A stretch of DNA of 64,000 nucleotides from Candidatus Omnitrophota bacterium (GTDB lineage: Bacteria > Omnitrophota > Gorgyraeia > Zapsychrales > Fredricksoniimonadaceae), in contig JBGAJA010000001.1 in NCBI GenBank assembly GCA_044225175.1, positions 422,711 through 486,710 of the forward strand, given 5' to 3'. The notes beneath the pieces were generated by a model, which did not search any database, was not told the DNA's origin, and saw only the letters and a program-made list of their open reading frames with translations. Positions 47,260 to 47,438 of this stretch are shown here, piece after piece. A program made the position numbers and the translations under genes. Each line of letters opens with the position of its first letter. Position 1 is the stretch's first letter.

Positions 47260-47292
47260 GACACACGGAATTCCGGTGCCTGAAAGAGAAAA

Positions 47293-47310
47293 CTGGGACA
47301 CATTGAATAA
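47293..47310 (+). repeat. Intergenic module A copy 1: CTGGGACACATTGAATAA
   Basis: Recurs at 47391-47408 and (TTGGTACACATTGAATTAA) 54011-54029. Confidence 0.75.
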
Positions 47311-47334
47311 TCTGTAAGTACTTCTTAACTTTAT

Positions 47335-47359
47335 AATTCCGGTGCCACAAGACGTAACC
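47335..47359 (+). repeat. Intergenic module B: AATTCCGGTGCCACAAGACGTAACC (partial copy 47267-47280; variant at 54092-54116; CGTAACC core also at 60678-60684)
   Basis: Direct comparison of the three inter-paralog spacers. Confidence 0.7.
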
Positions 47360-47390
47360 TTAATTATTAGTCTTTCTAACCTTAAAAAAA

Positions 47391-47408
47391 CTGGGACACA
47401 TTGAATTA
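47391..47408 (+). repeat. Intergenic module A copy 2: CTGGGACACATTGAATTA, ~30 bp upstream of paralog 2 start
   Basis: Direct reading. Confidence 0.75.
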
Positions 47409-47438
47409 ACTTAAACTTCATCATAAAGAGGGTTGCCC

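Follow-up and report, generated by a model that had tools for sequence, protein, structure and literature searches.

Spacers of a tandem Tc-toxin array in a Candidatus Omnitrophota bacterium probably hold the remains of a lost paralog and solo arms of a cross-phylum repeat

Introduction

REP/BIME and Correia-type repeats are short hairpin-forming sequences, sometimes in tandem, that lie at gene ends, where they can influence termination or expression. Families of the REP and MITE kind usually occur densely throughout a genome; a MITE is recognized by terminal inverted repeats and a target-site duplication (TSD), and a REP by a GTAG-type 5′ motif and a RAYT gene. At Rhs and TcC (ABC toxin) loci, recombination among tandem polymorphic-toxin genes with variable C-terminal tips leaves fossil fragments such as orphan C-terminal tips. 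The attC sites of integrons and CALINs are imperfect palindromes that lie between co-oriented accessory genes, present AAC...GTT triplets in order, contain the stop codon of the upstream gene, and separate toxin-antitoxin or defence cargo that varies between related genomes. Integrons are recognized by an integrase close by, and CALINs by two or more attC sites that score under the attC covariance model. An attC has a variable terminal structure of 20–100 nt and a sequence that is poorly conserved apart from the R and L boxes, and both integrons and CALINs have been reported in Planctomycetes (PMC4889954).

The present study concerns a 64,000-nt stretch of a Candidatus Omnitrophota genome (hereafter, the window), in which four tandem toxin genes are separated by short spacers. 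Like Rhs and TcC loci, it combines polymorphic-toxin genes, variable tips, and what appear to be recombination fossils. Here, however, the fossil would be a 5′ leader and start fused to a 3′ end, as expected of a whole-body deletion, and, unlike Rhs and TcC loci with displaced tips, the spacers hold no immunity genes.

Results

The toxin array

In the window, ~40 kb of co-oriented housekeeping genes (including serA, purA, uppS, dxr, nusA, infB, ruvB, sdhAB, haem genes, and the atp operon) precede four tandem ~2160-aa genes that run from 40.8 kb to the window end. All convincing genes of the 64 kb are on the + strand, and the same 64 kb contain no tRNA or tmRNA gene that might act as an att site and, by Pfam lists, no recombinase or transposase. 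Each of the four paralogs carries SpvB, FG-GAP, TcdB_mid, and RHS domains (Pfam), which identifies them as TcB/TcC-fusion (ABC toxin/Rhs-like) proteins; as in other Rhs-type polymorphic toxins, a variable tip follows the end of the conserved core, the C-terminal alignment diverging after DPSGHSWFKK. The genes are:

40792..47259, + strand: paralog 1, TcB/TcC-fusion toxin (SpvB, FG-GAP, TcdB_mid, RHS repeats), 2155 aa (Pfam; ORF list)
47439..54005, + strand: paralog 2, 2188 aa (Pfam; NCBI protein match)
54155..60634, + strand: paralog 3, 2159 aa, the copy that diverges most, preceded by its own RBS (Pfam)
60702..64000, + strand: paralog 4, continuing past the window end (Pfam)

The paralog 2 protein is identical to NCBI protein P0001, and the closest named relatives of the toxin paralogs are held by Candidatus Omnitrophota MAGs. 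Identity among the paralogs at the DNA level is 65–81%. The spacers between them measure 179, 149, and 67 nt and contain no ORFs, immunity-sized ones included.

Several further features of the array were recorded. The last ~280 aa of paralogs 1–3 are unrelated glycine-rich tips (46360–47256, 53106–54002, and 59735–60631). In single-copy toxin relatives, a small ORF (MS..SIELHDSDIE...) is found immediately 3′ of the toxin (L017 16436–16849, L020 6607–6969, and L022 16445–16870). Paralog 1 contains, at 41977–42840, three tandem in-frame copies of a 288-nt unit (95% and 83% identity to the first), each made of two FG-GAP-type repeats, an expansion absent from the other paralogs. Between atpC and the array, a 134-aa ORF (40291–40695) has no NCBIfam match, and an identical 134-aa protein occupies the same position, right after atpD and atpC, on Logan contig L001.

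The repeated modules of the spacers

The initial annotation described the first spacer as an ordered series of two modules, A and B. These spacer modules are a real, non-random pattern. Module A (CTGGGACACATTGAAT) occurs exactly at 47293–47308 (A1) and 47391–47406 (A2), the starts originally proposed being right and the ranges 2 nt too long, and again with two mismatches at 54011–54026 in spacer 2 (A3). With up to three mismatches allowed, the window contains 5 matches against 0.72 expected, a number reached by 0 of 100 shuffles. Module B (AATTCCGGTGCCACAAGACGTAACC) is exact at 47335–47359, as described, but its full extent had been missed, since it runs 9 nt on to 47368 (TTAATTATT); a copy with two mismatches lies at 54092–54116 (expected count, 0.00). 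The reported partial B is present as AATTCCGGTGCC at 47269–47280 (repeat family D3), as is the CGTAACC core upstream of paralog 4 (60678–60684), and an additional partial copy, ATTCCGCTGAGACACACGG at 47250–47268, overlaps the paralog 1 stop codon. The modules do recur before paralog 3, though not reordered as had been claimed: A then B in spacer 2 matches A1 then B1 in spacer 1. Across the 64-kb window, both modules are confined to the three spacers. The features of the spacers, as we read them, are:

40736..40755, + strand: degenerate A-like copy upstream of paralog 1, ATGTTACCTTTGAGGTAACT (alignment A3; pairwise alignment; sequence)
47250..47268, + strand: apparent truncated B-family arm, ATTCCGCTGAGACACACGG, with the paralog 1 TGA stop at 47257–47259 (repeat families D2 and D4)
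47269..47280, + strand: apparent second truncated arm head, AATTCCGGTGCC, the partial B (family D3, 100% to 47335–47346)
47289..47334, + strand: putative ghost copy 1, A1 (47293–47308) and the first 26 nt of the leader, cut at the CTTTATAATTCCGG junction (alignment A3)
47335..47368, + strand: B1, complete solo arm of a dispersed element (genome scans; nhmmer E = 4.3e-8)
47377..47438, + strand: predicted working 5′ region of paralog 2, with a second TAACCTTAA, an A-tract, A2 (47391–47406), a shortened leader, and RBS AAAGAGGG at 47425–47432 (sequence; alignment A3; repeat grouping)
54004..54071, + strand: putative ghost copy 2, with an A-tract, A3 (54011–54026), the full leader, and an RBS-like GAGAGCTGCCC (alignment A3)
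54072..54092, + strand: putative ghost start, ATGCGAAATCTTCTTGTATAA, translated as M R N L L V stop (direct sequence reading)
54092..54125, + strand: B2, diverged solo arm with tail CGAATTCAT in place of TTAATTATT (nhmmer E = 1.9e-4)
60643..60689, + strand: weak B-like copy after the paralog 3 stop, AAATTCTGATGACAC...GGCGTAACCATAAT (p = 0.0125; nhmmer weak, E = 9)

A perfect inverted repeat, GTTACC-TTTGA-GGTAAC (GTTACC-N5-GGTAAC; 40738–40754), lies 38 nt upstream of the paralog 1 start, in the position where the other spacers have module A.

Copies of module B in other genomes

A scan of genomes, one per species, with TTCCGGTNCCACANGACGTAACC matched a single contig, from a Planctomycetales MAG. 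It carries two B copies 88 nt apart, and the identity extends through TTAATTATT, 10 nt past the search pattern, so that B1 agrees with the Planctomycetales copy at 34 of 35 positions. With GACGTAACCTTAATTATT, a scan of metagenomes gave 14 loci, and the left flank GGNCACAY is common to L003, L011, L014, and L016, four of these. The other metagenome matches to this 18-mer were rejected as coding coincidences (DVTLII, ABC ATPase) or as unrelated. Chance occurrences of the word in coding DNA include L010 235–252 and L005 1991–2008 (DVTLII, an ABC-ATPase motif), and exact-word scans therefore need the left flank for specificity.

When an arm profile built from the foreign copies only was run on the 64-kb window (nhmmer), it recovered B1 (E = 4.3e-8) and B2 (E = 1.9e-4) and no other match. 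Both have the core GGNCACAYGACGTAACCTTAATTATT, the sharp 3′ boundary, and the intergenic position at a gene end by which we define the B-type arm family here, a family sampled outside the window at six foreign loci only. The element is near-identical across phyla whose GC contents range from 34% to 49%. On these comparisons B is best described as a solo arm of a dispersed cross-phylum element with the core GGNCACAYGACGTAACCTTAATTATT and not as a local invention. The initial annotation had allowed that the motifs might occur nowhere else, which holds for A and fails for B, because B is found near-unchanged in other phyla.

The family has no Rfam match, and a literature search on the sequence strings gave nothing relevant. 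Rfam scans of the array and five foreign loci (E up to 1) returned chance snoRNA matches only, viral-contig scans 0 matches, and plasmid and phage BLAST only chance matches of 19–29 nt; we judge that a viral or plasmid origin is not indicated by the collections searched. The element is absent from Abi_C homologues in other contexts (L030–L042) and from the homologue of the L011 protein (L043), and it thus appears not to be tied to a particular cargo gene. Modules A and B are both absent from the toxin-gene relatives L017 and L020–L024. In L017, a single-copy Tc toxin is followed by several GAGAAACGACACTATTTATTC copies (21130–21420) adjacent to two Y1_Tnp (IS200/IS605-type) genes, and a two-mismatch match to module A at 21427 (minus strand) appears to be chance.

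Module A itself was not found by the foreign-only arm profile. However, the repeat finder places it together with the arm fragment that overlaps the paralog 1 stop (CTGAGACACACGGAATT versus CTGGGACACATTGAATT, 76–82% identity), and A2 aligns to the L011 arm (GGGACACATTGAATTAACTTAA versus GGGACACATGACGTAACCTTAA; p ~0.0015–0.002 by shuffling). These alignments suggest that A is probably a degenerate arm of the B family.

Anatomy and gene context of the B family

The arm has a sharp boundary after TTAATTATT and, on its other side, variable numbers of 11–12-nt units (GGTTATTCCGG or GTAAGATCCGG); the 11-mer GGTTATTCCGG shows no enrichment in the window. In the Planctomycetales MAG and in groundwater metagenomes, two inverted arms form a 45–70-nt imperfect palindrome between accessory or defence genes. 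Folding gave z = −4.25 for L016 343–416 and z = −8.55 for 8388–8437 of L025, which is the L003 contig with 20 kb of context. In its outer stem, L016 has GGACGTGT/ACACGTCC where other copies have GGACACAC/GTGTGTCC, both sides having changed with pairing kept, and within the family conservation peaks at the inner core GACGTAACCTTAATTATT. By themselves, B1 and B2 give no folding signal (z about 0), the arms of the window being solo, all in one sense, and lacking a partner arm. Since such solo arms are unable to form the hairpin, they would be relics or half-sites in the present genome.

Neighbors of the foreign copies include Abi_C, DUF6998, RelE/ParE toxin-antitoxin modules, and DUF2130 with an OLD-like nuclease; in L014, inverted arms flank a 3-kb two-gene cargo of the latter pair. 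The loci L002 and L025 are syntenic (FTCD_C 84% identical, RelE-like gene 88%), and the slot between the RelE-like toxin and FTCD_C is occupied by DUF6998 in L002 (2958–3625) and by Abi_C in L025 (9640–10856), with an arm on the 5′ side of both. In L002, L011, L025, and the window (paralog 1), the upstream gene has its stop codon within the arm, and in L002 and L025 the arm adjoins a GC hairpin with a T-run. Pfam lists contain no recombinase near B copies in L025 (20 kb), L016, or the window.

The L002 and L025 slots, both in Planctomycetales-type genomes, share 5′ and 3′ flank motifs (CGTnTTTAnnnTATGATGA). In L025, at least seven tandem 11–12-nt units (CGGAATAAC) occupy 9846–9960, between the arm and the Abi_C start, and a second patch before FTCD_C (10725–10856) consists of CCGGAT(A)ACC units, including a perfect palindrome, CCGGATACCCGGGTATCCGG.

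Three other identities for the arms were considered and set aside. A short ORF upstream, read from the arm's reverse strand (AAGG-N7-RTG), would encode peptides that are not conserved, and L016 lacks its start codon. Tn7-like ends (TGT...ACA with subterminal repeats) are disfavored by units of just 11 nt and by the absence of a TSD and of a transposase. Xer/dif-like sites show no similarity to the arms.

Leader copies and the putative ghost paralog

In alignment A3, a single register of A-tract, module A, ~45 nt of leader, RBS, and ATGCGAAAT is common to spacer 0 (where it is degenerate), the A2 copy of spacer 1, and spacer 2. This register identifies module A and the following ~45 nt as what is, judged by alignment, the native 5′ leader of the four tandem toxin paralogs, with a degenerate copy before paralog 1 and a working copy (A2) before paralog 2.

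In spacer 2, paralog 3 does not begin at the ATG at 54072, after which come five codons, a stop, and then B2; its true start is at 54155, after B2 and a different RBS. The ghost start at 54072 corresponds to the opening five codons of a gene of the paralog 1/2 type that run straight into last codons and 3′ flank. The junction sequence, made up of B2's head and the flank to its left (ATAAATTCCGGTTCCACACGACG), can be aligned to the paralog 1 end (ATAAATTCCGCTGAGACACACGG). Because this places it over the final codons of paralog 1 and the adjoining 3′ flank, spacer 2 appears to hold both ends of a bodiless paralog 1/2-type gene. In spacer 1, A1 and 26 nt of leader abut B1 at the CTTTATAATTCCGG junction, with 37 nt fewer than in spacer 2; by this comparison the ghost of spacer 1 is the same as that of spacer 2, a further 37-nt loss having apparently taken its RBS and ATG.

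The A1 ghost copy shares 88% identity with both A2 and the spacer 2 ghost. Ghost and leader copies as a group are 84–88% identical among themselves, versus 65–81% for the flanking CDSs, and this identity above that of the coding DNA points to later conversion, recurrence, or constraint.

Discussion

Collectively, the alignments and scans suggest that the spacers were built in three layers. In the first, module A and the ~45 nt that follow it would be the toxin paralogs' own 5′ leader. In the second, B would be one ~35-nt arm, with same-sense solo arms marking the 3′ end of each paralog unit. In the third, A1 with B1 (spacer 1) and A3 with the ghost start and B2 (spacer 2) would be the remains of a whole paralog, the 6.4-kb body of which was deleted so that its leader (plus five codons) was joined directly to its last codons and 3′ arm. 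Spacer 1 would then read, in order, 3′ arm fragments of paralog 1, the ghost (A1 leader and B1), and the A2 leader and RBS of paralog 2. We regard this structural account, a ghost paralog together with family arms, as quite probable, and spacer 1 is likely to be a scar left by recombination within a tandem toxin array rather than a designed control region. The array may have expanded and contracted via unequal or site-directed recombination at the repeats, and A or its leader may carry a promoter or 5′UTR function. The idea in the initial annotation of a duplication remnant or recombination hot spot is thereby supported in spirit: the spacers appear to contain a ghost paralog together with several same-sense copies of one repeat family.

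A single history for the two ghosts is not straightforward. They are 88% alike, whereas the paralogs that follow them are only 65% alike, and one old deletion followed by duplication would therefore call for gene conversion afterwards; alternatively, similar TAT|AA(A)TTCCGG sites gave rise to the junctions on two occasions. In addition, B1 matches the foreign consensus at 34 of 35 positions, which speaks against an old functionless relic and suggests constraint or recent re-copying.

Modules A and/or B might instead carry the promoters of the paralogs, either of the σ70 type, with TTGAAT as the −35 and TAAACT or TAACTT 17 nt downstream, or reading outward in the AT-rich arm tail. That tail (GTAAC/TTAAC) lies 19–41 nt upstream of all four start codons (4/4), and TTGAAT-N17-TAAACT in spacer 2 and TTGAAT-N17-TAACTT at A1 can be read by eye from the sequence. 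The A-tract before A is UP-element-like, the leader copies are more conserved than the CDS, and no terminators are predicted between the paralogs. Yet a consensus scan for σ70 promoters and terminators reported no strong σ70 promoter, and no terminator, inside the spacers; in A2, the only copy that directly precedes a live gene, a 12-nt deletion leaves TTGAAT only 5 nt from TAAACT; and foreign copies lie upstream of genes in the opposite sense, with nothing conserved at −35. As an explanation of the modules, promoters are thus a possibility that we lean against, while a promoter role for A with its leader is plausible on the sequence. Folding of spacer 1 on both strands (z = +0.8 and 0.0) indicates no structured RNA, a candidate that also found no Rfam match.

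A second alternative, which we consider doubtful, is that the B-family sites are attC-like and the toxin paralogs are cassettes, the solo arms being hybrid half-sites in a CALIN-like array and a recombinase encoded elsewhere inserting, excising, and swapping genes at the palindromes. Full sites are indeed imperfect palindromes with AAC...GTT triplets in attC order (GTGTAAC...GTTACGT in L016 and CGGTAAC...GTTACGT in L002), stop codons fall inside the left arm (L002, L025, L011, and the window), and co-oriented toxin-antitoxin, Abi, and OLD cargo differs between syntenic genomes. The inverted arms around the two-gene cargo of L014, the compensatory outer-stem change in L016, and the record of integrons and CALINs in Planctomycetes (PMC4889954) also fit. 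The architecture, however, departs from that of attC in several respects. The triplets sit mid-stem, with 13–15 further paired bases outside them, whereas attC R boxes are outermost; the loops are short (~10 nt in L016 and 8–10 nt in L025) where attC has its 20–100-nt variable terminal structure; and conservation, far from being poor, is highest in the core and loop, the reverse of attC. Moreover, L025, L016, and the window have no intI or other recombinase within 10 kb, and the window has solo arms in a single sense only. A canonical attC was rejected on the stem that runs past the AAC/GTT boxes, the short sequence-conserved loop, and the lack of a nearby integrase.

It is also unlikely, and in our estimate somewhat more so, that the sites belong with the REP, BIME, or Correia palindromes, as selfish or structural intergenic elements, with the window copies as decayed insertions that act, if at all, as insulators, terminators, or mRNA-end stabilizers. 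Such repeats share with the B family the intergenic hairpins at gene ends, and both the 11–12-nt subrepeats amplified alongside the arm (L025 9846–9960) and the adjoining GC hairpin with a T-run in L002 and L025 would suit them. In contrast to these families, the B family is low-copy and clustered (2–3 copies in 64 kb, all in toxin spacers; 3 in the 20 kb of L025, all in one islet), and its core is conserved across phyla, near identity over 34%–49% GC being unusual for lineage-specific REPs. It has no GTAG-type REP signature, no TSD is seen, the L014 pair included, and no RAYT or transposase gene lies near any copy. A typical REP or MITE was rejected on the low, clustered copy number and the lack of a TSD.

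Finally, the resemblance of module A to a −24/−12-type (RpoN) element that the initial annotation pointed out does not stand, and a σ54 promoter there is extremely improbable: the consensus is GG-N10-GC (TGGCAC-N5-TTGC), and A shares its TGG.AC and TTG letters in a loose likeness (TGGGAC ... TTGA) but has N3 rather than N5 spacing (TGGGAC-N3-TTGA), no GC at −12, and at least five mismatches at the correct spacing, while the best such string in spacer 1, on the reverse strand of B (TGGCACCGGAATTATA), has two mismatches, both on the essential GC, and strings with up to three mismatches occur in the window at background frequency (288 versus 255 in shuffles).

The B family could serve as a site of recombination or as an insulator, or it could be a selfish repeat. 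Its placement at the edges of swappable genes, the palindromic sites, the compensatory stem, and the cross-phylum near identity favor a DNA-level role over a promoter. A more specific proposal, which must be called improbable at present, is that PVC-group bacteria (Planctomycetota and Omnitrophota) possess an undescribed gene-cassette system that recombines at the B palindrome. Such a system would combine integron-like logic with a different site architecture and an unknown recombinase, would shuffle defence and toxin genes, and would have built and trimmed the Tc-toxin array.

The account of a ghost paralog and family arms replaces a speculative promoter with a concrete history at a toxin locus: the array would have lost at least one whole paralog, its junctions being made from one repeat family. 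For annotation, it locates the real starts and marks the ATG at 54072 as a fossil. Beyond this locus, B is a modestly novel lead, an undescribed cross-phylum gene-boundary repeat. A sequence of ~35 nt that is near letter-perfect between a probable Omnitrophota genome (39% GC) and Planctomycetales genomes (49% GC) is a cheap marker, and in every case seen here it borders genes that can be swapped, be they defence, toxin-antitoxin, or toxin genes. The marker could help to find variable gene slots in poorly known phyla and, if it is true that the family is a recombination site, it would hint at a new route of gene exchange in those phyla.
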